A program made the translations under genes and the position numbers. A stretch of DNA of 25,516 nucleotides from a virus (lineage: Duplodnaviria > Heunggongvirae > Uroviricota > Caudoviricetes), in the IMG/VR virus record IMGVR_UViG_2695420503_000007, positions 1-25,516 of that record; one strand, given 5' to 3'. Under the pieces are notes generated by a model, which worked only from the letters and a program-made list of their open reading frames with translations, made no database searches and was not told the origin of the DNA. This document shows positions 2-25,516 of this stretch, piece by piece; position 1 is the first letter of the stretch; every line of letters starts with the position of its first letter.

Positions 2-115
2 GTATCTTCTAATCCAAATGGATATTTTGTCGGGAATCAGAGAACAACAGCATATGGGATAAATGAAACCCGTCCACGGAATATTGCATTTAACTATATC
101 GTGAGGGCTGCATAA
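2..115 (+). CDS. tail-fibre C-terminal variable cassette, 3' end only (gene continues left of the window)
   Basis: Open frame enters from the left edge and stops at TAA 113-115, overlapping the ATG of the next gene. Translation ...GYFVGNQRTTAYGINETRPRNIAFNYIVRAA resembles C-termini of Mu S / P1 S / e14 Stf-type fibres. It is followed by a Tfa gene on the same strand. Confidence 0.55.
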   Translation, partial: VSSNPNGYFVGNQRTTAYGINETRPRNIAFNYIVRAA

Positions 116-717
116 TGGATAACGCTGTATTAAATAGCGAGTTTATTGCTACAAAGGCGGGGAATATTACCGTCTATAACTATGATGGCGAAACACGGGA
201 ATATATTTCCACATCAACTGAATATCTTGCTGTGGGTGTCGGTATCCCTGCATATTCCTGTTTAGATGCCCCTGGCACATACAAAGCTGGTTATGCAATC
301 TGCCGATCTGTAGATTTTAACTCATGGGAATATGTGCCAGACCATCGCGGTGAAATCGTCTTTAGCACCGAAACAGGAGAATCAAAAGAAATCACAGCTC
401 CGGGTGATTACCCTGATAATACAACCACTATCGCCCCGTTAACGCCATACGATAAATGGGATGGTGAGAAATGGGTGACGGATACCGAAGCACAGCATAG
501 CGCCGCAGTAGATGCAGCAGAAGCACAGCGCCAGTCACTGATTGATACTGCAATGGCTTCAATCAGTCTGATTCAGCTGAAATTGCAGGCCGGACGTAAA
601 CTGACGCAGGCAGAAACAACCAGCCTTAACACTGTGCTGGATTACATTGACGCGGTGACGGCAACAGATACCAGCACCGCGCCGGATGTCATCTTGCCTG
701 AACTGCCGGAGGCGTAG
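115..717 (+). CDS. tail fibre assembly chaperone (Tfa, Mu U'-like)
   Basis: 200-aa ORF directly downstream of the fibre cassette and translationally coupled to it (TAATG). Size and position are typical of Tfa. It converges on a second Tfa gene on the other strand. Confidence 0.65.
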   Translation: MDNAVLNSEFIATKAGNITVYNYDGETREYISTSTEYLAVGVGIPAYSCLDAPGTYKAGYAICRSVDFNSWEYVPDHRGEIVFSTETGESKEITAPGDYPDNTTTIAPLTPYDKWDGEKWVTDTEAQHSAAVDAAEAQRQSLIDTAMASISLIQLKLQAGRKLTQAETTSLNTVLDYIDAVTATDTSTAPDVILPELPEA

Positions 718-1129
718 GCCATTCAATATCTGGCGCACTGGCGGTATCGACCAGCTCCAGTGCGTCCAGATAATCCAGCCACAAATTATATTGTGCCAGT
801 TCCCCACCTTTCAGACGACCAATAGCTGCTTTACCAGGCCATTGCTTACCGTTCATGTAATCATTGGCTAAATCTATTCTTTTTTGCTTCTCCACATCAG
901 CAGCGACAATTAATTCTTCTCGTGTAGGTGGAGGAATATCACCCCATGCTGGCATGTTATTTAAAGTTATAAGTTGCTTACCTGTAGGGGGAGTGCCGGA
1001 AAACTCATAATAAATACTGTCACTAACGTTAATGGCATCATGTGGCCAACAATTATTATCAACATAATCAGCCTGCCACTCGATGGCATAAAAACGGGAC
1101 TCAGATGGACTGAACACAAAACGATTCAT
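689..1129 (-). CDS. tail fibre assembly chaperone (Tfa, Mu U-like)
   Basis: 146-aa ORF immediately downstream of the left tail-fibre gene on the - strand, 1 bp apart. Its 3' end overlaps the opposing Tfa gene (689..717), as in invertible fibre segments. Confidence 0.65.
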   Translation of the reverse strand: MNRFVFSPSESRFYAIEWQADYVDNNCWPHDAINVSDSIYYEFSGTPPTGKQLITLNNMPAWGDIPPPTREELIVAADVEKQKRIDLANDYMNGKQWPGKAAIGRLKGGELAQYNLWLDYLDALELVDTASAPDIEWPTPPAVQAR

Positions 1130-1130
1130 A

Positions 1131-1730
1131 TTAATATCCTATAGCTAAAAACATAGCGTCTGAGGTGTTTGTATTTACAGCAATATTCATCATGACCTGA
1201 GCGGTAAATCCTGTATTGCTTACCCACTCGCATGAGTTAGTTATCTGAACCCATGTTAATTTGGTAGAAAAAACGCCCCAGCAATTAACAGGGAACGGGA
1301 CAGGGAAAGTCACTGGCACAGAATTTACTACACCGACAGTAGTCAAATTTGCGAGCGTCCGGCGAAACACCTGAATCTTAAGACCATCAGGACCTGTAAA
1401 TAACAAATTATCGGTGTACTGCCCGCTTGCTCTTAAACCAAGGTTTTCGAGAGCCGTTTTCACCGTGCCGTCCGATTTGATATCGCCAAACGGATTTTTG
1501 CGGCTTAACAGCAGCGCACGAAGCGCGGTAAGCAACTGGTCGTGCCGCCCTTTCTCCAGGCTGGCACCGGAGGCCTCCACAACGCTGCAAAGCTCCTCCT
1601 GCAACATGTCAAAGTAGTCATCATCCAGATCGGTGGCAGGTGTGCCGGTCTGGGGGTTACCACGGGTAAAACCGTTCTTACCCGCGCCGAACTTATCCTT
1701 CTGCGCGGTTTTCGTGTCTATACGATGCAT
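1131..1730 (-). CDS. tail fibre protein, left copy (constant N-terminal 99 aa fused to a variable C-terminal ~100 aa)
   Basis: 199-aa ORF. The first 99 aa ([21 protein letters not shown]...TALENLGL) are identical to the start of the right-hand fibre gene at 25065; the sequence then diverges ([14 protein letters not shown]...). It follows the gp48-like gene, the position the fibre gene occupies in Mu/e14-type modules. Confidence 0.75.
1428..1453. other. hix/gix/pix-like 26-bp site-specific inversion site (left copy)
   Basis: Plus-strand TGCTCTTAAACCAAGGTTTTCGAGAG, a 12-2-12 imperfect dyad around AAACC-AA-GGTTT. By recall it matches Salmonella hixL (TTCTTGAAAACCAAGGTTTTTGATAA) at 18 of 26 positions. 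It sits at the constant/variable junction of the fibre gene, where the inverted-repeat homology ends. Confidence 0.6.
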
Positions 1731-1733
1731 GAA

Positions 1734-2318
1734 TTACTCCGGATATTTAAAAATTACGTAGGTATGCGACGGGCAGAGTTTGTTAAGCACACACTCGACA
1801 ACGGTGTCGCCCCAGATACGCAGTGCGGAATCACAGGGATCGCCACATGTCATCCAGGTGGTGTTGGTGGCGGCTGGCATGTTGACCTGCCAGTAATACC
1901 GCCATTCCGGCGCATTCACAGCGTCAGTGCAGGCTGATGAGCAGGTGAACGTGCTTTTGTCGTATCGCGTGATGGTAGCGTCTGGTCTGCCCAGGGCAGC
2001 AAGCTGTGCAAGGTAAAAATCCTCATTGATGCCGCCCGCCAGGTTAACCTTCGCATCCAGTCGTTGCTGACGCTGGCGAAGGGTCTGTGTCCCTGCGGGA
2101 ATACATTCATCCGGCAGGCCGCACAGACGCTCCCAGCGGTTTATCAGTTCGGTGGTGGTGCGCGGATCCAGCTCCCGCATCAGGGCATCCGCACGCTGAT
2201 GAACGCGGGTTAATGACGGTGCCGAACCGGCAATCGCCGGATCGCTGGCTGACCACGCCGGACCGGGGGGCAACAGTGCAGACAACAGACGGATGTAATC
2301 ATCGTTTGTCACGTCCAT
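1734..2318 (-). CDS. Mu gp48-like baseplate/tail protein (DUF2313, e14 YmfQ-like), left copy
   Basis: 194-aa ORF between the baseplate J-like gene and the fibre gene, overlapping the J-like gene by 10 bp. Identical to 24477..25061. Confidence 0.7.
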
Positions 2319-3367
2319 GAAATCGTCCCCAGAACCGCCAGTTCATTTTTTGCAATGGAGATATTGTCTGCCGGTGCAAGCAACTGATGGCTGTATTCCC
2401 CGTTCGCACCGGAAATCGCCTCACTGATACGCGACACCTTCAGTTCTCCCTGCGGATAACCATCACGCAGCAGGAACGAACGCAACTCCGCGGTGATGGC
2501 AGCCCGTATTTCCGGTGTATCCGGCGTCACGCGGATATGAAAATCCACTTTATGTGCCACCGGCCTGAATACATACAAATCAGAGCCTGCCACCGGGGCC
2601 AGTGGCCCGATATGTTGTCTTGCCGCCGTTTCCGTTGATTCTTCCGGAATGGGATTAATCAGGTCACTGCTGGCAATCATCACACCGACAGTTCCCGTTC
2701 CCATCCAGTGACGGTATGTCCATGCGCGGGTAATGCCGGGCACTTCTTTAGCCCAGACGACATAGTCCCCGTCAGCCCCGCCCTGCGGCGTCCAGTAATA
2801 CCGCTCAATGACGCGGGCGCGCCACGTTTCCAGATCTTCAGTATCGAATCCGCCAGTCAGGGTATCTGCAACACCGGAAGACGGCAGACCATTCACCGGC
2901 GTGACCAGGATTAATGCCGTACCGTCGTCAGCGTTACCGACCGCGCCTGTAGTTGAGCAAGTGATCGGCACACGCAGGACACCACCGGAGCTGGTTGCAT
3001 CGGCAGTTGCCGTGTACTGAACCAGGTCATCGCGCTGAATCACGCTCCCGGCAGTCACCTTCAGGCCATCGCTGACACCTTCCCAGCGCATATACCCGCT
3101 GGCAGCCGTGGCCCCCTTGCGCGGACACCGTTTCATCGCAGCATGTCGCGCCAGCCAGGACTCATCGCACAGGTCAGGCAGCATATTCATTGCCAGATAA
3201 TCGATGTACCCGTAGACCGTATGCAGCGCCGCCGCATACACCTTTGCCCGCACGTCTTCATCCATGCGCCGGAGCGTGTTGCTGACGTCCAGCCTGGCGA
3301 ATAAATCGTTACGGAGCATACTGATATTTTCTGCCAGCGTCGGGCGCTGAAATTCACTGTCCGCCAT
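2309..3367 (-). CDS. baseplate J-like protein (Mu gp47 / e14 JayE-like), left copy
   Basis: 352-aa ORF with the size and position of the baseplate J family. Identical to 23428..24486. Confidence 0.8.
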
Positions 3368-3782
3368 GCGTTATCGCACTCCACAGATCATCAAAAGAAA
3401 TCATTACCGGTCCGTCACGACGCCAGAGAGTGATACTGTTACCCAGTTCATTAATCCCGGTACGGCGGATATCCAGATCAATACGGGACACCACGCCGTC
3501 ATCAATCATCCATTGCAGGCATTCGCGGATATACCCCCTTACCGTCTGCACCAGCTGATTGGTCAGTTTGCTGCGCTGAAGCAGCCACAGTCGGGAGCCG
3601 TAACGGTCATTCTGTACCGCAGGCCAGGTATCCCCCCACCATCCCATCGGGACGTCGGCGTTGTCATCAGGCTCCGCCCGCCGCCAGGTAAACAGGGAAA
3701 TCACCACGGCGCGGGTCAGCGGATCCAGCGGTGCGCTGGCGCAGGTGCGTTTACCGCTCACCGTCAGCCACAGTTCCATCAT
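3354..3782 (-). CDS. baseplate protein, Mu gp46-like (GPW/gp25-like), left copy
   Basis: 142-aa ORF, translationally coupled between the gp45-like and J-like genes. Identical to 23013..23441. Confidence 0.7.
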   Translation of the reverse strand: MMELWLTVSGKRTCASAPLDPLTRAVVISLFTWRRAEPDDNADVPMGWWGDTWPAVQNDRYGSRLWLLQRSKLTNQLVQTVRGYIRECLQWMIDDGVVSRIDLDIRRTGINELGNSITLWRRDGPVMISFDDLWSAITHGGQ

Positions 3783-4327
3783 GCCTCCATCGCTTTATCA
3801 GGTTTGTCGGTGTTACTGCCCTGACCGTTCTCTCTGTGACGATGCCCGTTATAGGCAAGCCGCATCGCTGACATGGTGGTGCCGCCGGAGTCGCACAGGT
3901 CTTTCACCTGTCCGGTCACTTCCAGGTCCATTTCAAAACGTGCTTTAGGTGAATTGCGAAACGTGATCGTTTTACCTGCACCGTCCACCACGATCCCCTC
4001 CCGGGTCAGCGTCACGGACTGCCCCTGATCGTCATAGACAGCCACCTCACCCGTCTGCAGCCCTTTCAGGCGGTAGCGCCGGTCCGACACCGTAACAACC
4101 ACCGCATGAGAACGGTCGCCATCCGGAAACAACACCACCGCTTCCGCACCGCTGTTTGCCCTTGCGGTAAAACCGTAGGGTTCAAGATGTTCAACCCCGG
4201 CTTTGGGTTCACCGGCAATCAGGGACACATCCACGGTCTGGCATTTCGTGGCGGCACTGATGCTTTTCACCACTGCCCGCCCAATCAGGCCGAGAAGTTG
4301 TCGCTGCATGGCTTCAATCGTCCTCAT
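3779..4327 (-). CDS. baseplate spike/assembly protein V-like (Mu gp45-like), left copy
   Basis: 182-aa ORF identical to 22468..23016; stop/start overlap with neighbours. Confidence 0.75.
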   Translation of the reverse strand: MRTIEAMQRQLLGLIGRAVVKSISAATKCQTVDVSLIAGEPKAGVEHLEPYGFTARANSGAEAVVLFPDGDRSHAVVVTVSDRRYRLKGLQTGEVAVYDDQGQSVTLTREGIVVDGAGKTITFRNSPKARFEMDLEVTGQVKDLCDSGGTTMSAMRLAYNGHRHRENGQGSNTDKPDKAMEA

Positions 4328-4694
4328 CAGAACGGGTCCTCCTGTACTCTGGCTTTTTTCTTTTTCCGCGCGCCGGGAGCTTCGGGTTCAGGCAGATAAG
4401 CATCAGGCGGGCCGACACGGATTTCCGTCAGGGTGCCGTTCTGGTCCTGAGTAAACGTGACTTCCGAGACAAGCAGTTCGGTATTGTCGAAACCACAGAC
4501 CGGATCGAAGACAATCACCCGCTGGTTGGGCTGCCACAGCGTACCGTTACCCTGTCGCCAGCCCTGCACCACATAGGTGGTTTCATCCGTCCGCGCCGCC
4601 CGTTGTCGGGCTTCAAAGTCCGCACGGGCAATACAGCCTGCCCCCGTAGCCTGCCCTGTCTGCCTGATATACATCGGACGGTAACGGGCAATAA
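4327..4694 (-). pseudogene. 5'-truncated copy of the baseplate hub gene (Mu gp44/P-like); only the C-terminal ~122 codons are present
   Basis: Reverse complement is identical to 22101..22468, the 3' third of the intact 359-aa gene at 21389..22468. Homology stops abruptly at 4694 with no start codon or RBS for the fragment. Confidence 0.75.
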
Positions 4695-4940
4695 CGCTGG
4701 GTTAAGACACAGCCGTGTGCATGTTGTGGAAAGCCCGCTGATGATCCTCACCACCTGATAGGTCACGGTCAGGGGGGAATGGGTACAAAAGCGCATGACC
4801 TCTTTGTGTTGCCTTTGTGCAGAAAGCATCACGACGAACTGCATGCGGATACCGTGGCATTTGAAGAGAAGTATGGCTCTCAGTTGGAGCTGATATTTCG
4901 TTTTATCGATCGTGCGCTGGCAACTGGCGTACTGGGCTGA
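4695..4940 (+). pseudogene. 5'-truncated gene remnant (Cys/His-rich C-terminal 81 codons; resembles the DUF968/NinG-region proteins found upstream of Q in lambdoid prophages)
   Basis: Open frame begins exactly at the repeat junction (the in-frame TAA 4692-4694 lies in the repeat) and ends at TGA overlapping the Q-frame ATG. Translation RWVKTQPCACCGKPADDPHHLIGHGQGGMGTKAHDLFVLPLCRKHHDELHADTVAFEEKYGSQLELIFRFIDRALATGVLG has no plausible start. Family assignment is from memory only. Confidence 0.4.
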
Positions 4941-4957
4941 TGTTGTGGAGAAAGTTG

Positions 4958-5299
4958 ATGCGTGACATGTATGAAGTTTTGGACCGCTGGGGAGCATGGG
5001 CTGCAGCAGATAACAGTAGTGTGGACTGGCAGCCGATAGCAGCAGGCTTCAAGGGGCTTTTACCTCATGGTAAAAAAACACGTCTCCAGTGTGATGATGA
5101 TGAAGGGATCATGATAGACGGTTGTGTCGCACGGTTACGTAAATATAAACAAGAAGAATATGAGCTAATAATTGCCCACTTTGTTATTGGTATTTCATTA
5201 CGCGCCATTGCGAAGAAGCGTAAGTGTTCTGATGGGACAATTAGAAAAGATATGCAAACAGCATTAGGTTTTGTTAGTGGTGTGCTATCAATGCTATGA
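4958..5299 (+). CDS. Q: late antiterminator Q (Q21/QuuD-type)
   Basis: Translation MRDMYEVLDRWGAWAA...AAGFKGLL...CDDD...CSDG matches the N-terminal hallmark I recall for DLP12 QuuD-type Q proteins. GGAG sits 7 nt upstream of the ATG at 4958; the track ORF starts at an upstream in-frame ATG (4940) that lacks an RBS. It lies upstream of the lysis cassette. Confidence 0.7.
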   Translation: MRDMYEVLDRWGAWAAADNSSVDWQPIAAGFKGLLPHGKKTRLQCDDDEGIMIDGCVARLRKYKQEEYELIIAHFVIGISLRAIAKKRKCSDGTIRKDMQTALGFVSGVLSML

Positions 5300-5302
5300 T
5301 TA

Positions 5303-5325
5303 TAAGAGGCCTTAGGGCCTCTTTA
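5303..5325. terminator. hairpin between the convergent Q and cassette genes (candidate bidirectional intrinsic terminator)
   Basis: AGAGGCC-TTAG-GGCCTCT perfect 7-bp stem, flanked by T-rich sequence on the + strand and A/T-rich sequence on the - strand, in the 27-bp gap between the two stop codons. Confidence 0.5.
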
Positions 5326-6069
5326 CTAAATTACTTGGATGATGAAAGAAACAATCAATGTTGCTAAACCACCAATAGCAGATACTTTAAATTCCGAACC
5401 ACGAAATACCATCTTCCCATTGACCTTTATATTATTTGCAATGAATGGTGATATTCCAACGGCCGCACTCATGAAATATAAAGAAGAAATCATTTTCTTT
5501 TGAAACTCATTCAAGTCTGGCATTAACAGTGTAATTGATAAAAAAATACAAAAACTTAAAAATCCAATAATAGCAGTGACAATTAATTTCCAATTCATTG
5601 GGGTACCTATAGTAAATCCATCGATTGGCAATTTTCGAGACTCAAATTCCGCAATAATAGCGGTGTAAATATCTTTTGATGAGTACTTTTTAATGATTCT
5701 TTGGATGTTTGATAGACCATCTTTGCTATACAATACAATATTGTCTGGATCAATTTTTAGGTGTTTAATGTTTGCCACCATCATGTCGTAGTATTCTAAA
5801 TAAGTTTCCAGAACTGCTCGACAGTCTCCAGCTAACGAAATGGCGAATGTCTTATTGTCATCCAGTTTACATAAATCTACTTTTTGAACTAACTTAACAG
5901 CGGTATTAAAATATTTTGAAGCATGCTGCTGAACTTCATGTAGGTCAGCAAGGTTTGATATACCGCCATTACGCACGTATGGCTGAATACCACGTAAAAA
6001 TCTTTCCTTTGCAGAAGTCAGCTCCGACGTTACTTCGTCGGGGCTGATCTGAAACACATCATTATTCAT
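5326..6069 (-). CDS. hypothetical membrane-anchored protein (about 160-aa soluble N-terminal domain plus 2-3 C-terminal hydrophobic helices); cassette gene B
   Basis: 247-aa ORF, AT-rich, on the strand opposite all flanking phage genes. Hydrophobic segments WKLIVTAIIGFLSFCIFLSITLLM, ISSLYFMSAAVGISPFIA and VSAIGGLATLIVSFIIQVI. Start overlaps the stop of the upstream small gene (ATGA). I do not recognise the family. Confidence 0.75.
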   Translation of the reverse strand: MNNDVFQISPDEVTSELTSAKERFLRGIQPYVRNGGISNLADLHEVQQHASKYFNTAVKLVQKVDLCKLDDNKTFAISLAGDCRAVLETYLEYYDMMVANIKHLKIDPDNIVLYSKDGLSNIQRIIKKYSSKDIYTAIIAEFESRKLPIDGFTIGTPMNWKLIVTAIIGFLSFCIFLSITLLMPDLNEFQKKMISSLYFMSAAVGISPFIANNIKVNGKMVFRGSEFKVSAIGGLATLIVSFIIQVI

Positions 6070-6329
6070 TTTTGTTTTGGTGCCAGCATTCTTAATGCAG
6101 TGTTAAGATCAGAGTTGTCCACACTTTCAGTGATTAAGAATTGGGTATTGGGAACATGACGGCTGATAATGCCTTGGAGCATGCTACGACTTATAACTTT
6201 ACCACTTTGAAGCGCGGAGTTAATGTCATTTTGTATCAAAGTGATTTCACGCTCGGTACAGGGGAAACCCCACCGAGTAACATTTGCATATTCACCAATT
6301 TTTTTCTTAAATTCTAGGTAGTTACTCAT
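6066..6329 (-). CDS. hypothetical small soluble protein (87 aa); cassette gene A, first gene of a two-gene operon
   Basis: AT-rich ORF with a strong SD (AAGGAG) 8 nt upstream of the ATG, translationally coupled to gene B. No recognisable motif. Confidence 0.7.
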   Translation of the reverse strand: MSNYLEFKKKIGEYANVTRWGFPCTEREITLIQNDINSALQSGKVISRSMLQGIISRHVPNTQFLITESVDNSDLNTALRMLAPKQK

Positions 6330-6355
6330 TGCAGTTCTCCTTGTTTGTAACCACG

Positions 6356-6368
6356 TTAATCATATCAA
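6356..6368 (-). promoter_or_regulatory. candidate extended -10 promoter (TGaTATGAT) for the two-gene cassette
   Basis: On the - strand, TGATATGAT lies about 30 nt upstream of the gene A ATG, preceded by an A/T-rich tract with no good -35. Pattern match only. Confidence 0.3.
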
Positions 6369-6447
6369 AAAGCAAAATAATAAAAAACTAACGCGTACGC
6401 AAAAAGTATTGTATCGTGTTAAGAGTGGTTACTTCGCCACGCAGCTT

Positions 6448-6472
6448 AAACCCGCCGATGAGCGGGTTTTGT
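6448..6472 (+). terminator. tR'-like intrinsic terminator hairpin upstream of the lysis genes
   Basis: AAA-CCCGC-cgatga-GCGGG-TTTT, a GC stem followed by a T-run, about 150 bp upstream of the holin start. This is the position of tR' (6S RNA terminator) in lambdoid late regions, where Q-modified polymerase reads through. Confidence 0.5.
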
Positions 6473-6620
6473 CGTCTCTGGCCCGGCTGTTAGTTGGGCT
6501 TGGCCTATCCCGCAGTTATCCATTTGCTCGGCTTCTTTGACGTTTCCGCTTCTGATTTGCGGTTCCTGATATTCCCTCAATTTGCACCTGCTGTATCAGC
6601 AAGGTGAGAGATAACTATAA

Positions 6621-6947
6621 ATGCCTCATAACCCAAATACCTGGCTGGAGTTGCTCCAGAGCTGGTGGCGTGGAGACACCCCGCTGGGCGCAGTGATTAT
6701 GTCGATCGTTATGGCTGGTTTGCGCATCGCCTATTTTGGCGGTGGTGGTGGCTGGAAGCGAAAAACGCTCGAGATTTTGCTATGTGGCGCTCTGACGCTG
6801 ACCTTTGCATCCGCTCTTGAGTATGTCGGATGGCCTAAATCGCTTTCTGTTGCCATTGGTGGTGGCGTGGGGCTGATCGGTGTCGATGCTATTCGTGGGG
6901 CTGCAATGCGAGTAATCGGTAACAAATTTGGTAGCTCGAAGGAGTAA
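6621..6947 (+). CDS. holin
   Basis: 108-aa ORF directly upstream of the endolysin, with hydrophobic helices, a Gly-rich loop and a charged C-terminus (KFGSSKE). RBS AAGGTGAGAG precedes it. Confidence 0.75.
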   Translation: MPHNPNTWLELLQSWWRGDTPLGAVIMSIVMAGLRIAYFGGGGGWKRKTLEILLCGALTLTFASALEYVGWPKSLSVAIGGGVGLIGVDAIRGAAMRVIGNKFGSSKE

Positions 6948-6950
6948 TTT

Positions 6951-7427
6951 ATGCAGGCACTAAATTCCCAGCGTAAAGCTTTCCTGGATATGGTGGCATG
7001 GTCAGAAGGAACGGATAACGGGCGACAGCCGACACGTAACCACGGTTATGATGTTATTGTTGGTGGCGAACTGTTCACTGATTACTCCGATCACCCTCGC
7101 AAACTTGTCACGCTAAACCCCAAACTCAAATCAACAGCTGCCGGACGTTACCAGCTTCTTTCACGCTGGTGGGATGCTTACCGTAAACAGCTTGGCCTGA
7201 AAGATTTTTCTCCAGAAAGCCAGGACGCTGTAGCTCTGCAGCAGATTAAAGAGCGTGGTGCTTTACCGATGATTGACCGCGGCAGTATTCGTCAGGCAAT
7301 CGACCGTTGCAGCAATATCTGGGCGTCGTTACCTGGTGCAGGTTACGGTCAGTATGAACATAAAATCGGTGACCTGATTGCCCGATTTAAAAAAGCTGGT
7401 GGGGTAGTAAATGAAGCTGAGATATAA
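6951..7427 (+). CDS. R: endolysin, lambda R-type lytic transglycosylase
   Basis: Translation ...NSQRKAFLDMVAWSEGTDNGRQPTRNHGYDVIVGGELFTDYSDHPRKLVTLNPKLKSTAAGRYQLLSRWWDAYRKQLGLKDFSP... is near-identical to lambda R as I recall it. Confidence 0.9.
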   Translation: MQALNSQRKAFLDMVAWSEGTDNGRQPTRNHGYDVIVGGELFTDYSDHPRKLVTLNPKLKSTAAGRYQLLSRWWDAYRKQLGLKDFSPESQDAVALQQIKERGALPMIDRGSIRQAIDRCSNIWASLPGAGYGQYEHKIGDLIARFKKAGGVVNEAEI

Positions 7428-7803
7428 GCTGGTTATTGTTGCCTTCGTTGTTAGCGTCATTGGTTCCTTCATCTGGTCTGCTGGGCATTACTACAGCAAA
7501 TATCAGCACGAAAAGGAGCGTGCTGATGAGGCTGTACGAAATGCTGAATCAGCAACTGCCATTACCCGTAACGTTCTTCAATCACTGCAAATCATCAATA
7601 CAGTTATAGAGGCTAACCAGCATGCAAAACAGCAGATCGCACTGGAGTCACAGAGAACCCAGGAAGATATCAAAGTGGCTGTTGCGGATGATGATTGTGC
7701 TTCACGTCATGTGCCTGCTGCCGCTGCTGACCGGTTGCGGAAGTACGCGAACAGTTTACGTACCGATTCCGGCGGTACCGTTGCCAGCAAGCCTGACTAC
7801 TGA
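7411..7803 (+). CDS. Rz: i-spanin (Rz-type)
   Basis: 130-aa ORF overlapping the endolysin 3' end, with an N-terminal TM helix (LVIVAFVVSVIGSFIW) followed by a charged, coiled-coil-like region. It contains the start of an out-of-frame lipoprotein gene. Confidence 0.75.
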   Translation: MKLRYKLVIVAFVVSVIGSFIWSAGHYYSKYQHEKERADEAVRNAESATAITRNVLQSLQIINTVIEANQHAKQQIALESQRTQEDIKVAVADDDCASRHVPAAAADRLRKYANSLRTDSGGTVASKPDY

Positions 7804-7960
7804 AACTCCCCAGCCAGTCATTCCCGAGCCGCTGACCTATGGGGCCAGTCTGGATCTGAATGTGAGCCTGCTTTCGGCGTTGGGACAATGCAATATTGAC
7901 AAAGCGGGGATTCGAAGTATCGATATGCGCCGTAACGCTTTGCTGGCAGCAGGCAAATAG
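7688..7960 (+). CDS. Rz1: o-spanin lipoprotein (Rz1-type), overlapped architecture
   Basis: In the +1 frame relative to Rz: MMIVLHVMCLLPLLTGCGS with lipobox LLTGC, then a Pro-rich mature region. It starts inside Rz and extends about 157 bp past the Rz stop. Confidence 0.65.
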   Translation: MMIVLHVMCLLPLLTGCGSTRTVYVPIPAVPLPASLTTETPQPVIPEPLTYGASLDLNVSLLSALGQCNIDKAGIRSIDMRRNALLAAGK

Positions 7961-21392: not shown

Positions 21393-22468
21393 ACGACAAT
21401 GTTACGCTACGGGTAAATGGCCGGGAGTGGAATGGCTGGACATCGGTGCGCATCGGTGCCGGTATTGAACGGCTGGCGCGGGATTTCAGTGTGGAGATCA
21501 CTCGCCAGTGGCCGGGAGATGAGGGTATCACCACGCTTCAGCCGCGCATTAAAAACGGTTCAAAAGTGGAAGTGCTGATTGGTGATGAGCTGGTGATCAC
21601 CGGCTGGGTGGAGGCGACTCCCGTTCGTTACGATGCCCGTTCGGTCAGCACCGGTATTGCCGGACGTAGTCTGACGGCTGACCTGATTGACTGTGCAGCC
21701 GAACCGACACAGTTTAACGGACGCTCGCTGGTGCAGATTGCGCAGGCGCTTGCTGCGCCTTTCGGCATTGAGGTGGTGAACAGCGGTGCGCCATCGGGTG
21801 TTATTCCTGATGTTCAGCCTGATCACGGTGAAACGGTGATTGAGGTAATCAACAAAATACTCGGTCAGCAGCAGGCGCTGGCTTACGACGACCCGCACGG
21901 TAGGCTGGTGATTGGTGGTATTGGCTCAACGCGGGCACATACCGCGCTGGTACTTGGGGAAAACATCCTTTCCTGTGATACGGAGAAGAGTATCCGGGAG
22001 CGGTTTTCTGTTTACCAGGTGGCGGGGCAGCGTGCCGGAAACGACGATGATTTCGGTGAGGCCACCACCACCGCGCTGCGGGCCCGCACAGAGGACGCAT
22101 TTATTGCCCGTTACCGTCCGATGTATATCAGGCAGACAGGGCAGGCTACGGGGGCAGGCTGTATTGCCCGTGCGGACTTTGAAGCCCGACAACGGGCGGC
22201 GCGGACGGATGAAACCACCTATGTGGTGCAGGGCTGGCGACAGGGTAACGGTACGCTGTGGCAGCCCAACCAGCGGGTGATTGTCTTCGATCCGGTCTGT
22301 GGTTTCGACAATACCGAACTGCTTGTCTCGGAAGTCACGTTTACTCAGGACCAGAACGGCACCCTGACGGAAATCCGTGTCGGCCCGCCTGATGCTTATC
22401 TGCCTGAACCCGAAGCTCCCGGCGCGCGGAAAAAGAAAAAAGCCAGAGTACAGGAGGACCCGTTCTGA
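21389..22468 (+). CDS. baseplate hub protein (Mu gp44/P-like)
   Basis: 359-aa ORF, coupled upstream (ATGA) and downstream (TGATG). Its last ~122 codons are repeated inverted at 4327..4694. Confidence 0.8.
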   Translation: MNDNVTLRVNGREWNGWTSVRIGAGIERLARDFSVEITRQWPGDEGITTLQPRIKNGSKVEVLIGDELVITGWVEATPVRYDARSVSTGIAGRSLTADLIDCAAEPTQFNGRSLVQIAQALAAPFGIEVVNSGAPSGVIPDVQPDHGETVIEVINKILGQQQALAYDDPHGRLVIGGIGSTRAHTALVLGENILSCDTEKSIRERFSVYQVAGQRAGNDDDFGEATTTALRARTEDAFIARYRPMYIRQTGQATGAGCIARADFEARQRAARTDETTYVVQGWRQGNGTLWQPNQRVIVFDPVCGFDNTELLVSEVTFTQDQNGTLTEIRVGPPDAYLPEPEAPGARKKKKARVQEDPF

Positions 22469-23016
22469 TGAGGACGATTGAAGCCATGCAGCGACAACTT
22501 CTCGGCCTGATTGGGCGGGCAGTGGTGAAAAGCATCAGTGCCGCCACGAAATGCCAGACCGTGGATGTGTCCCTGATTGCCGGTGAACCCAAAGCCGGGG
22601 TTGAACATCTTGAACCCTACGGTTTTACCGCAAGGGCAAACAGCGGTGCGGAAGCGGTGGTGTTGTTTCCGGATGGCGACCGTTCTCATGCGGTGGTTGT
22701 TACGGTGTCGGACCGGCGCTACCGCCTGAAAGGGCTGCAGACGGGTGAGGTGGCTGTCTATGACGATCAGGGGCAGTCCGTGACGCTGACCCGGGAGGGG
22801 ATCGTGGTGGACGGTGCAGGTAAAACGATCACGTTTCGCAATTCACCTAAAGCACGTTTTGAAATGGACCTGGAAGTGACCGGACAGGTGAAAGACCTGT
22901 GCGACTCCGGCGGCACCACCATGTCAGCGATGCGGCTTGCCTATAACGGGCATCGTCACAGAGAGAACGGTCAGGGCAGTAACACCGACAAACCTGATAA
23001 AGCGATGGAGGCATGA
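22468..23016 (+). CDS. baseplate spike/assembly protein V-like (Mu gp45-like)
   Basis: 182 aa, identical to the left copy at 3779..4327. Confidence 0.8.
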   Translation: MRTIEAMQRQLLGLIGRAVVKSISAATKCQTVDVSLIAGEPKAGVEHLEPYGFTARANSGAEAVVLFPDGDRSHAVVVTVSDRRYRLKGLQTGEVAVYDDQGQSVTLTREGIVVDGAGKTITFRNSPKARFEMDLEVTGQVKDLCDSGGTTMSAMRLAYNGHRHRENGQGSNTDKPDKAMEA

Positions 23017-23441
23017 TGGAACTGTGGCTGACGGTGAGCGGTAAACGCACCTGCGCCAGCGCACCGCTGGATCCGCTGACCCGCGCCGTGGTGATTTCCC
23101 TGTTTACCTGGCGGCGGGCGGAGCCTGATGACAACGCCGACGTCCCGATGGGATGGTGGGGGGATACCTGGCCTGCGGTACAGAATGACCGTTACGGCTC
23201 CCGACTGTGGCTGCTTCAGCGCAGCAAACTGACCAATCAGCTGGTGCAGACGGTAAGGGGGTATATCCGCGAATGCCTGCAATGGATGATTGATGACGGC
23301 GTGGTGTCCCGTATTGATCTGGATATCCGCCGTACCGGGATTAATGAACTGGGTAACAGTATCACTCTCTGGCGTCGTGACGGACCGGTAATGATTTCTT
23401 TTGATGATCTGTGGAGTGCGATAACGCATGGCGGACAGTGA
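23013..23441 (+). CDS. baseplate protein, Mu gp46-like
   Basis: 142 aa, identical to the left copy at 3354..3782. Confidence 0.75.
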   Translation: MMELWLTVSGKRTCASAPLDPLTRAVVISLFTWRRAEPDDNADVPMGWWGDTWPAVQNDRYGSRLWLLQRSKLTNQLVQTVRGYIRECLQWMIDDGVVSRIDLDIRRTGINELGNSITLWRRDGPVMISFDDLWSAITHGGQ

Positions 23442-24486
23442 ATTTCAGCGCCCGACGCTGGCAGAAAATATCAGTATGCTCCGTAACGATTTATTCGCCA
23501 GGCTGGACGTCAGCAACACGCTCCGGCGCATGGATGAAGACGTGCGGGCAAAGGTGTATGCGGCGGCGCTGCATACGGTCTACGGGTACATCGATTATCT
23601 GGCAATGAATATGCTGCCTGACCTGTGCGATGAGTCCTGGCTGGCGCGACATGCTGCGATGAAACGGTGTCCGCGCAAGGGGGCCACGGCTGCCAGCGGG
23701 TATATGCGCTGGGAAGGTGTCAGCGATGGCCTGAAGGTGACTGCCGGGAGCGTGATTCAGCGCGATGACCTGGTTCAGTACACGGCAACTGCCGATGCAA
23801 CCAGCTCCGGTGGTGTCCTGCGTGTGCCGATCACTTGCTCAACTACAGGCGCGGTCGGTAACGCTGACGACGGTACGGCATTAATCCTGGTCACGCCGGT
23901 GAATGGTCTGCCGTCTTCCGGTGTTGCAGATACCCTGACTGGCGGATTCGATACTGAAGATCTGGAAACGTGGCGCGCCCGCGTCATTGAGCGGTATTAC
24001 TGGACGCCGCAGGGCGGGGCTGACGGGGACTATGTCGTCTGGGCTAAAGAAGTGCCCGGCATTACCCGCGCATGGACATACCGTCACTGGATGGGAACGG
24101 GAACTGTCGGTGTGATGATTGCCAGCAGTGACCTGATTAATCCCATTCCGGAAGAATCAACGGAAACGGCGGCAAGACAACATATCGGGCCACTGGCCCC
24201 GGTGGCAGGCTCTGATTTGTATGTATTCAGGCCGGTGGCACATAAAGTGGATTTTCATATCCGCGTGACGCCGGATACACCGGAAATACGGGCTGCCATC
24301 ACCGCGGAGTTGCGTTCGTTCCTGCTGCGTGATGGTTATCCGCAGGGAGAACTGAAGGTGTCGCGTATCAGTGAGGCGATTTCCGGTGCGAACGGGGAAT
24401 ACAGCCATCAGTTGCTTGCACCGGCAGACAATATCTCCATTGCAAAAAATGAACTGGCGGTTCTGGGGACGATTTCATGGACGTGA
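23428..24486 (+). CDS. baseplate J-like protein (Mu gp47 / JayE-like)
   Basis: 352 aa, identical to the left copy at 2309..3367. Confidence 0.85.
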
Positions 24487-25061
24487 CAAACGATGATTAC
24501 ATCCGTCTGTTGTCTGCACTGTTGCCCCCCGGTCCGGCGTGGTCAGCCAGCGATCCGGCGATTGCCGGTTCGGCACCGTCATTAACCCGCGTTCATCAGC
24601 GTGCGGATGCCCTGATGCGGGAGCTGGATCCGCGCACCACCACCGAACTGATAAACCGCTGGGAGCGTCTGTGCGGCCTGCCGGATGAATGTATTCCCGC
24701 AGGGACACAGACCCTTCGCCAGCGTCAGCAACGACTGGATGCGAAGGTTAACCTGGCGGGCGGCATCAATGAGGATTTTTACCTTGCACAGCTTGCTGCC
24801 CTGGGCAGACCAGACGCTACCATCACGCGATACGACAAAAGCACGTTCACCTGCTCATCAGCCTGCACTGACGCTGTGAATGCGCCGGAATGGCGGTATT
24901 ACTGGCAGGTCAACATGCCAGCCGCCACCAACACCACCTGGATGACATGTGGCGATCCCTGTGATTCCGCACTGCGTATCTGGGGCGACACCGTTGTCGA
25001 GTGTGTGCTTAACAAACTCTGCCCGTCGCATACCTACGTAATTTTTAAATATCCGGAGTAA
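24477..25061 (+). CDS. Mu gp48-like baseplate/tail protein (DUF2313 / YmfQ-like)
   Basis: 194 aa, identical to the left copy at 1734..2318. Confidence 0.75.
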
Positions 25062-25064
25062 TTC

Positions 25065-25516
25065 ATGCATCGTATAGACACGAAAACCGCGCAGAAGGAT
25101 AAGTTCGGCGCGGGTAAGAACGGTTTTACCCGTGGTAACCCCCAGACCGGCACACCTGCCACCGATCTGGATGATGACTACTTTGACATGTTGCAGGAGG
25201 AGCTTTGCAGCGTTGTGGAGGCCTCCGGTGCCAGCCTGGAGAAAGGGCGGCACGACCAGTTGCTTACCGCGCTTCGTGCGCTGCTGTTAAGCCGCAAAAA
25301 TCCGTTTGGCGATATCAAATCGGACGGCACGGTGAAAACGGCTCTCGAAAACCTTGGTTTGGGAGAAGGCTCTGCATTACCTGTTGGTGTGCCTGTTCCG
25401 TGGCCTTCCGCCACTCCGCCGACAGGCTGGCTGAAATGCAACGGTGCCGCTTTTTCTGCTGAAGAATACCCGGAACTGGCAAAGGCTTATCCGACAAATA
25501 AATTGCCTGATTTACG
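25065..25516 (+). CDS. tail fibre protein, expressed right copy (5' part; continues past the window end)
   Basis: Same 99-aa constant N-terminus as the left copy, then [51 protein letters not shown], the conserved motif that follows the inversion crossover in Mu/P1/e14-type fibres. Confidence 0.8.
25342..25367. other. hix/gix/pix-like 26-bp site-specific inversion site (right copy)
   Basis: CTCTCGAAAACC-TT-GGTTTGGGAGAA. Its reverse complement TTCTCCCAAACCAAGGTTTTCGAGAG matches hixL (as recalled) at 20 of 26 positions. Repeat homology ends within this site. Confidence 0.6.

Follow-up and report, generated by a model that had tools for sequence, protein, structure and literature searches.

A translationally coupled gene pair between Q and the putative late promoter unit of a lambdoid prophage as candidate defence cargo

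We analysed a stretch of phage DNA of 25,516 nucleotides (nt), hereafter the window, which corresponds to positions 1 to 25,516 of the IMG/VR record IMGVR_UViG_2695420503_000007 (Caudoviricetes), and focused on a compact cassette of two genes, A and B, situated between the antiterminator gene Q and the lysis genes. Taken together, the results suggest that the cassette is defence cargo of a familiar kind in a prophage hotspot, with a putative function and with a membrane protein, B, that had already been flagged computationally. The locus contains the following features (window coordinates).

4940–5299, plus strand: antiterminator Q gene (PF06530), the left flank
5294–6375, no strand assigned: variable cargo segment, swapped for unrelated genes in related prophages (from homology with loci L009–L014)
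5304–5323, no strand assigned: GC-rich hairpin of 8 bp, filling the 26 nt that separate the stops of Q and B
5326–6069, minus strand: gene B, 247 amino acids (aa), from the open reading frame and sequence
6066–6329, minus strand: gene A, 87 aa, from the open reading frame and sequence
6337–6340, minus strand: Shine-Dalgarno sequence GGAG of gene A, 7 nt 5' of its ATG, read directly from the sequence
6359–6367, minus strand: candidate extended −10 element TGaTATGAT (TG at 6366–6367, TATGAT at 6359–6364)
6376–6470, plus strand: conserved 95-nt unit, the right flank, ending in an 8-bp GC-rich hairpin (6448–6469) and a T-run
6621–6947, plus strand: lambda-family holin gene, to the right of the cassette

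Endolysin and Rz-like genes lie 3' of the holin gene, followed by genes for an HNH endonuclease and the terminase. An earlier note on this DNA had described two coupled minus-strand genes of 87 and 247 aa, and the reading frames matched that description exactly, with the start codon of B within the stop of A (ATGA overlap at 6066–6069). The cassette has its own Shine-Dalgarno sequence, as the same note had stated, 7 nt before the ATG of A; gene B has none, and its translation therefore probably depends on coupling to A. The AT-richness of the cassette relative to the phage backbone was likewise reproduced (GC content of 0.32–0.40 against 0.50–0.59), and GC content at third codon positions (GC3) was 0.32 for B and 0.36 for A, compared with 0.54–0.63 in the holin and terminase genes. 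By our own arithmetic, a frame of 247 open codons would arise by chance with a probability of about 1e-8 at this composition. Comparison with a 94%-identical E. coli variant gave ratios of nonsynonymous to synonymous substitution rates (dN/dS) of 0.24 for B and 0.45 for A, and homologues in Klebsiella and Citrobacter retained 47–57% protein identity although their synonymous sites were saturated or nearly so (dS at least 1.9). Judged by these patterns of substitution, A and B are real genes, both under purifying selection. The claim that the pair lies on the strand opposite to all flanking genes held for the immediate flanks and failed further out, since the genes at 689–4674 are also on the minus strand, owing to a 3.27-kb inverted duplication.

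On the left of the cassette, Q is a distant relative of Q21 (PDB 6P18, E = 1e-4) and is 46% identical to QuuD of DLP12. It is also AT-rich (GC 0.43, GC3 0.37), near the values of the cassette and unlike those of the late genes. In the Klebsiella and Citrobacter loci Q shows about 87% protein identity with saturated synonymous sites, in parallel to the deep synonymous divergence of A and B, and by this measure Q and its cargo appear to have long travelled together in that lineage. The hairpin at 5304–5323 has folding energies of −14.0 and −13.4 kcal/mol on the plus and minus strands (z of about −3.0 and −3.4, respectively), and from its predicted fold it is likely to be a bidirectional terminator or insulator.

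On the right, homology boundaries defined the 95-nt unit as an independent mosaic block, which was found in 570 E. coli records whatever genes follow downstream. It includes a perfectly conserved stretch on the minus strand (TTTTTGCGTACGCGTTAGTT) with the palindrome GCGTACGC, and also a small hairpin (GTGG..CCAC); DLP12 keeps the leader/terminator half of the unit upstream of essD. The unit probably consists of a Q-dependent (Q21-type) late promoter, a leader with qut site and the tR' terminator, although its −35 and −10 hexamers are unassignable. A search of Rfam with positions 5200–6700 returned no match. A generic scan for promoters and terminators flagged neither the cassette promoter nor the 5304–5323 hairpin nor the 95-nt unit; its promoter sites were no more frequent than in shuffled sequence, and the hairpin was missed because it carries no strong T-run. 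The extended −10 element at 6359–6367, which the earlier note had named as a candidate promoter, thus gained nothing from the generic scan, but its pattern TGnTAnnnT was kept in four divergent loci of E. coli, Klebsiella and Citrobacter despite drift of the neighbouring bases, and we infer that it is the candidate promoter of the cassette.

Two earlier statements about position had to be revised. The cassette was said to be convergent with late transcription; it is convergent with Q and in fact diverges from the putative late promoter unit at 6376–6470. It was also placed in the slot that holds the Shiga toxin genes. Those genes (stx) lie downstream of PR'/tR', on the late strand, and depend on Q. 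The cassette resembles them as acquired cargo in the broad Q-to-lysis region of lambdoid phages; it differs in being encoded on the opposite strand, in its location upstream of the putative late promoter unit and in having a candidate promoter of its own. Its place between Q and that unit is instead the slot of nmpC in DLP12 of E. coli K-12, which is also opposite-strand cargo, between quuD and the leader/terminator part of the 95-nt unit; nmpC differs in encoding an outer-membrane porin and in being interrupted by IS5.

The Q-to-lysis gap had also been described as a site of acquired cargo, and this was borne out by comparison with related prophages, in which the segment 5294–6375 is replaced by unrelated genes. 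Homology on the left ended at 5275–5293 in four of the five loci that share Q, a few bases from its stop codon, and at 5004 in L013, and L009 showed no left-flank homology within the stretch compared; on the right, homology resumed at 6374–6387. The other E. coli cargoes found between Q and the 95-nt unit were unrelated genes, always on the opposite strand, an orientation common to all eight cargo types of this slot. They were as follows.

L009, opposite strand: phosphoesterase-NACHT (phosphoesterase-STAND) protein
L010, 1417–2967: three hypothetical genes, no PADLOC match
L011, 2057–4449: NA37 (nucleoid-associated-like) protein and a 404-aa hypothetical protein, no PADLOC match
L012, opposite strand: two-gene pair
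L013, opposite strand: KAP NTPase
L014, 2990–4451: pair of 182 and 308 aa, no PADLOC match

Three of these six matched candidate defence families of PADLOC (PDC-M53A/B, PDC-S20 and PDC-S60), the PDC-S20 cargo being the PifA-like KAP NTPase and the PDC-S60 cargo the phosphoesterase-STAND protein, and we regard the cargoes of L010, L011 and L014 as further candidate systems of the hotspot. The slot is variable, lies between conserved phage genes and has alternative occupants that include candidate defence systems. When 5,426 complete E. coli genomes were searched, 21 contained the entire cassette, six of them with at least 99.7% identity and the remaining fifteen with about 94%. Two different prophage backbones carry it: L001 combines a P27-type terminase with a myovirus tail, and L002 is lambda-like and has a DNA methyltransferase along with essD/rrrD. 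These two backbones, together with Klebsiella and Citrobacter loci that have different replication and lysis modules, established the recurrence of the cassette in the same slot with other flanks, for which the earlier note had asked.

The properties of the two proteins were then compared with databases and structure models. Protein A is soluble and basic (isoelectric point, pI, 9.3), with four helices predicted by AlphaFold2 (AF2; mean predicted local distance difference test, pLDDT, 75.7) and with a motif near its C-terminus, D71-N72-S73-D74-L75, that was invariant in 13 sequences down to 23% identity. By hydropathy, B has a soluble N-terminal part of about 159 aa (pI 5.9) followed by transmembrane (TM) regions at 160–182, more weakly at about 194–210, and at 230–247, with a K/R-rich loop at 211–229. 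The AF2 model of B (pLDDT 72.7) contained a helical N-domain, with helices across residues 10–144, and TM helices at 160–182 and 188–210, while the C-terminal TM region at 232–246 was poorly modelled. Hydropathy and AF2 thus agreed on a soluble domain of about 160 aa with two to three C-terminal hydrophobic helices, as first described, and hydropathy together with the K/R-rich loop would fit a topology with the N-terminus inside and the C-terminus outside. The B family is marked by F54, N55, C83, Q123, R124, G151 and F152 in the predicted cytoplasmic domain (motifs YFN, AExC, QR and LPxxGF), and the last TM helix is glycine-rich, also as part of the family signature. Across the family the N-domain is conserved and the C-terminus variable: most members have two or three TM helices, one (P0091) has a single TM helix followed by an alpha/beta hydrolase domain, and another (P0069) has DUF3298 added at its C-terminal end. 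These comparisons suggest that the conserved N-domain is sensor-like and wired to variable effector ends.

Neither product was recognisable in the earlier note, and the searches gave the same outcome. Pfam contained no family for A or B (zero families at E ≤ 0.1 for B), and NCBIfam gave no significant match for either. PADLOC-DB v2 returned nothing for A and nothing for the homologous pair of the P2 lineage described below; its only hit for B, to DndH (E = 0.007, 11.6 bits, 56 residues), did not qualify as a match. Sequence searches of the PDB retrieved designed helical proteins only for B and, for A, lambda Cro at a non-significant E of about 0.5, and Foldseek against viral structures yielded nothing at E ≤ 0.001. 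The sole family matches were PHROG 31842 for A (1.8e-7) and PHROG 5814 for B (4.4e-15), both annotated as "unknown function"; the same PHROGs scored the P2-lineage pair at 1.8e-59 and 1.2e-111, respectively. A holin or antiholin identity was considered for B and rejected: there was no Pfam or PHROG lysis match, and no lysis genes accompany the pair where it occurs in P2-like phages, integrons and chromosomes.

We next asked how widely the two genes occur and whether they occur together. Close homologues were found in Citrobacter, Klebsiella and Enterobacter (53–81% identity for B and 48–91% for A), and wherever a locus from Klebsiella or Citrobacter was examined, the two genes adjoin each other and face a PF06530 Q gene tail-to-tail, also next to other replication and lysis modules. 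An exhaustive profile search gave 79 representatives of the B family at E ≤ 1e-3. The A family comprised at least 331 clusters of 80–100 aa in a profile search, none of them annotated, with hosts that include Vibrio, Haemophilus, Aeromonas, Shewanella and Marinomonas; a genome scan with the A motif found four loci only. Each of the 23 loci that we collected has a B-family gene immediately behind one or two A-like genes, on the same strand and at a spacing between a 4-nt overlap and a 10-nt gap. The pair was also present in 14 of 14 IMG/VR contigs, ten of them with the order Q, B-A, 95-nt unit, three with the P2 arrangement and one elsewhere, which brings the pairing to 37 of 37 loci from Gamma- and Betaproteobacteria and one metagenome-assembled genome (MAG) of Ignavibacteriales. 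On this distribution, A-B is a widespread and obligate two-gene module that is mobile between hotspots. Six distant loci carry two tandem A paralogues before B (L017, 119–639; L018, 4533–5001; L027–L030, about 5670–6470), and the ancestral module may have had three genes, the enterobacterial and Vibrio forms having been cut to one A.

Among sequenced phages, megablast with the cassette gave no match, and tblastn found one P2-like phage only (under two accessions). It encodes an 85-aa homologue of A (hhalign probability 97.9%) and a 233-aa homologue of B (98.5%), both on the opposite strand and flanked by the genes G (tail-fibre assembly) and FI (sheath). The likeness to P2 Z/fun cargo lies in this placement, opposite-strand homologues of A and B at a known accessory and defence locus (PMC13586616), and the difference in the distance of the proteins, which are 22–33% identical to A and B of the window. 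This tail-gene (Z/fun) accessory locus was counted among the defence hotspots of P2 in a 2026 study (PMC13586616); the hotspot of Rousset et al. 2022 was considered and set aside, being the cos-proximal P2 site and not the tail-gene locus. Two sets of distant homologues lie close to known defence systems: in a Noviherbaspirillum MAG they are about 1 kb from PD-Lambda-1 (E = 1e-161), and in Paraburkholderia they are directly upstream of OloA and OloB of Olokun (E = 1e-59 and 3e-146). In the Ignavibacteriales MAG the pair is near a phage replication O gene.

The linkage of the pair to Q raised the question of whether it serves the phage itself or the host, through lysis timing, Q-dependent late expression, or a membrane or stress benefit to the lysogen. 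It abuts the same Q family near a holin gene in all lambdoid loci examined, and the parallel deep divergence of Q, A and B, with synonymous sites saturated or nearly so, could be taken in the same sense. We nevertheless consider such a function very unlikely, as the pair is also found in the P2-like tail region, in integrons and in chromosomes without nearby Q or lysis genes, the cargo is altogether different in related prophages that share Q and the holin, and B matches no holin or antiholin family. The linkage is explained more simply by cargo that sits between Q and its cognate promoter unit and is hence co-inherited with both, which would need no functional link.

Outside phages, the pair forms a cassette of the V. 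cholerae superintegron, with repeats on both sides that we recognise by the VCR consensus as VCR/attC repeats. This cassette has its own promoter (TTGAAA/TATAAT), and its neighbours are ParE/Phd and TacA cassettes. In addition, the pair stands alone as an insertion in H. influenzae (between guaB and guaA) and in Aeromonas (after sucD), and in L017 a VapB gene adjoins the module. These settings bear on plain toxin-antitoxin addiction, in which B would be a membrane toxin and A a labile antitoxin, stabilising the carrier DNA with no specific anti-phage role. For this explanation speak the small first gene whose stop codon overlaps the start of the larger one, which is the gene order of type II toxin-antitoxin systems, the superintegron copy with its own promoter amid ParE/Phd and TacA cassettes, the VapB neighbour and the lone insertions between housekeeping genes. 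We rate it as distinctly improbable.

Our preferred reading is that the pair is a self-contained module against phages, which lambdoid prophages carry as exchangeable cargo and which is expressed in the lysogen from its own promoter; we assign this reading a probability of roughly 0.55. A defence role is argued for by the PDC-S20, PDC-S60 and PDC-M53 slot-mates, the P2 Z/fun hotspot, the PD-Lambda-1 and Olokun neighbours, the integron cassette and the score of a published machine-learning screen. In Table S10 of DefensePredictor (Science 2026, PMC13092281), a 243-aa protein from the cluster represented by WP_053886465.1 carries the label "Predicted novel defense gene"; the mean log-odds is 7.88, where the strict cutoff is 4, and neither HHblits nor Foldseek gave a match (PMC13092281). 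WP_053886465.1 is also the accession under which B appears in the near-identical E. coli E1 prophage. It was not among the cloned or validated units in the DefensePredictor tables examined, and the relevant accessions were not found in the main texts of the papers, Table S10 being the sole occurrence. With the hotspots, the integron form, the defence neighbours, the variable effector ends and the machine-learning call considered together, some anti-phage role for A-B seems fairly probable. The earlier note had suggested an abortive-infection, superinfection-exclusion or toxin/antitoxin-like module; the general defence type is supported by cargo at a hotspot and five independent lines of context, which do not tell abortive infection, exclusion and toxin-antitoxin action apart.

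Several points weigh against a defence module. Validated defence proteins show no sequence or fold similarity to A or B in the Pfam, PADLOC, PDB and viral-structure searches, and the context fits non-suicidal exclusion or a plain addiction module equally. The guaB-guaA site of H. influenzae and the post-sucD site of Aeromonas are not defence islands. The cytoplasmic domain of B is a generic helical bundle in the AF2 model, residues 212–247 have a pLDDT below 50, so that the last TM region is of low confidence, and the promoter and terminator assignments have no support from the generic scans. Finally, 42 of the 94 cloned high-score predictions of DefensePredictor (about 45%) were validated experimentally (PMC13092281).

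As to how the module might work, the operon order, in which A is well translated and B is coupled behind it, together with the strict pairing, suggests that A gates or neutralises B. A small first gene with a coupled second gene gives the usual antitoxin-first stoichiometry of type II toxin-antitoxin operons. Combined with the predicted position of B at the inner membrane, this leads us to favour an abortive-infection mechanism of the toxin-antitoxin type. B would reside in the inner membrane and expose its conserved helical domain of 160 aa to the cytoplasm. Since translation of B would depend on that of A, A would be synthesised earlier and in larger amounts. A might then bind the cytoplasmic domain of B via or near the DNSDL motif and keep B inactive, until an infecting phage removes, titrates or modifies A, or acts on the cytoplasmic domain directly; the glycine-rich TM helices of B could thereupon oligomerise and depolarise or permeabilise the membrane, and the infection would be aborted. 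All of these steps are presumed, from expression in the lysogen and the binding of A to B to the trigger and the damage to the membrane, and we put forward this A-gated membrane effector as a tentative model, with the odds somewhat against it.

A gentler alternative at the same membrane is superinfection exclusion, in which B, assisted or stabilised by A, would block genome entry or an early membrane step and the cell would survive. HK97 gp15, P22 SieA and T4 Imm are non-suicidal exclusion proteins of this kind, and porin genes such as nmpC alter phage receptors. Consistent with it, B is a predicted inner-membrane protein carried by prophages and probably expressed in the lysogen from its own promoter, the pair is found in hotspot and defence-island contexts, and the homologous slot of DLP12 holds the porin gene nmpC. 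A triggered effector, however, is better matched by the strictly conserved small partner with its coupled, antitoxin-like gene order, and the family member that has a hydrolase in place of the TM end also fits it better than a passive block; integron cassettes and lone chromosomal copies are typical of toxin-antitoxin-like modules. Exclusion is accordingly an unlikely account of the pair.

Known two-component membrane systems were compared with the A-gated model. RexAB of lambda is similar in being a two-gene prophage module that pairs a soluble protein with one of the inner membrane, the latter thought to collapse the membrane potential on infection, and differs in that the sizes are reversed: here the soluble partner has 87 aa and the larger membrane protein has a 160-aa cytoplasmic domain of its own. 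Homology to RexAB was rejected, as all three hhalign comparisons remained below 2% (0.1% for B with RexA, 1.4% for B with RexB and 0.2% for A with RexA) and there was no RexA or RexB match in Pfam. The membrane toxin SpoIISA of Bacillus subtilis consists of three TM helices plus a cytoplasmic domain, and its small antitoxin SpoIISB neutralises it. The likeness to B, a protein of about 250 aa with three TM regions, a cytoplasmic domain and a small soluble partner, makes similar working possible, whereas in the cassette the TM regions are C-terminal (the opposite domain order), the small gene comes first and the taxa are others; B matched no Pfam family and hence not SpoIISA. Sucellos, of the V. 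cholerae superintegron, is a RexAB-like cassette with its own promoter in which both genes are needed (bioRxiv 10.1101/2024.07.02.601686). Sucellos and Toutatis, from the V. cholerae integron study, were both dismissed for an architecture unlike that of A/B, Sucellos on the basis of its description as structurally RexAB-like. JukAB was also discarded, since neither JukB-specific fold or sequence similarity nor a JukA partner was found.

A more far-reaching reading can be formulated, in which the pair represents a new and widespread membrane-acting immune family, found in Gamma- and Betaproteobacteria and beyond: a sensor/gate of about 85 aa with the motif DNSDL(N/R)T, in one or two copies, would control an undescribed cytoplasmic helical domain fitted with swappable effectors (a TM bundle or an alpha/beta hydrolase), and the Q slot would be a dedicated hotspot with self-immunity through read-through from Q. 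We regard this combination as doubtful. Two regulatory ideas about the slot are speculative in their own right, namely that the opposite-strand orientation would keep constitutive cargo transcription off the lysis genes, and that read-through from Q could damp the cargo on induction.

Because the published machine-learning screen had already flagged B, the main value of the present analysis is the added context, namely the obligate small partner, the breadth of the family, its presence in two phage hotspots and as an integron cassette, and its defence neighbours; this context makes the DefensePredictor call directly testable. If the defence reading is true, the cassette would be a compact system of about 1 kb without detectable relation to known ones and with a clear family signature, and genetic work on it would be eased by the broad range of hosts and the small size of the gate protein. 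The Q-to-late-promoter gap of Q21-type lambdoid prophages would then be a place to seek more systems; several unannotated two- and three-gene cargoes were present in this slot in only eight sampled genomes.

Some other features of the window were recorded. The inverted duplication is perfect over 3,270 nt (1425–4694 and 22101–25370) and covers a Mu-like baseplate and tail-fibre region. Its left arm abuts a DUF968 gene truncated to the last 53 codons (4779–4940), which has about 330 aa in a reference prophage, and the junction 4694/4695 has no counterpart in the 5,426 complete E. coli genomes; the duplication could have arisen in one of two ways, as a fold-back artefact of assembly or as a private rearrangement. 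It ends at 1425 inside a tail-fibre C-terminal gene (1131–1730), which is adjoined by two opposed tail-fibre assembly genes (115–717, plus strand, and 689–1129, minus strand, both PF02413). By analogy, the layout at 115–1730 resembles an invertible tail-fibre segment of the Mu G type, and no invertase was seen in the window. In the lysis region, the DUF2570 (Rz-like) gene is a partial pseudogene in the E. coli E1 prophage according to RefSeq (L001, 14112–14384), and the DUF2570 reading frame of the window is intact (7411–7803, 130 aa), with an embedded Rz1-like frame at 7622–7960.

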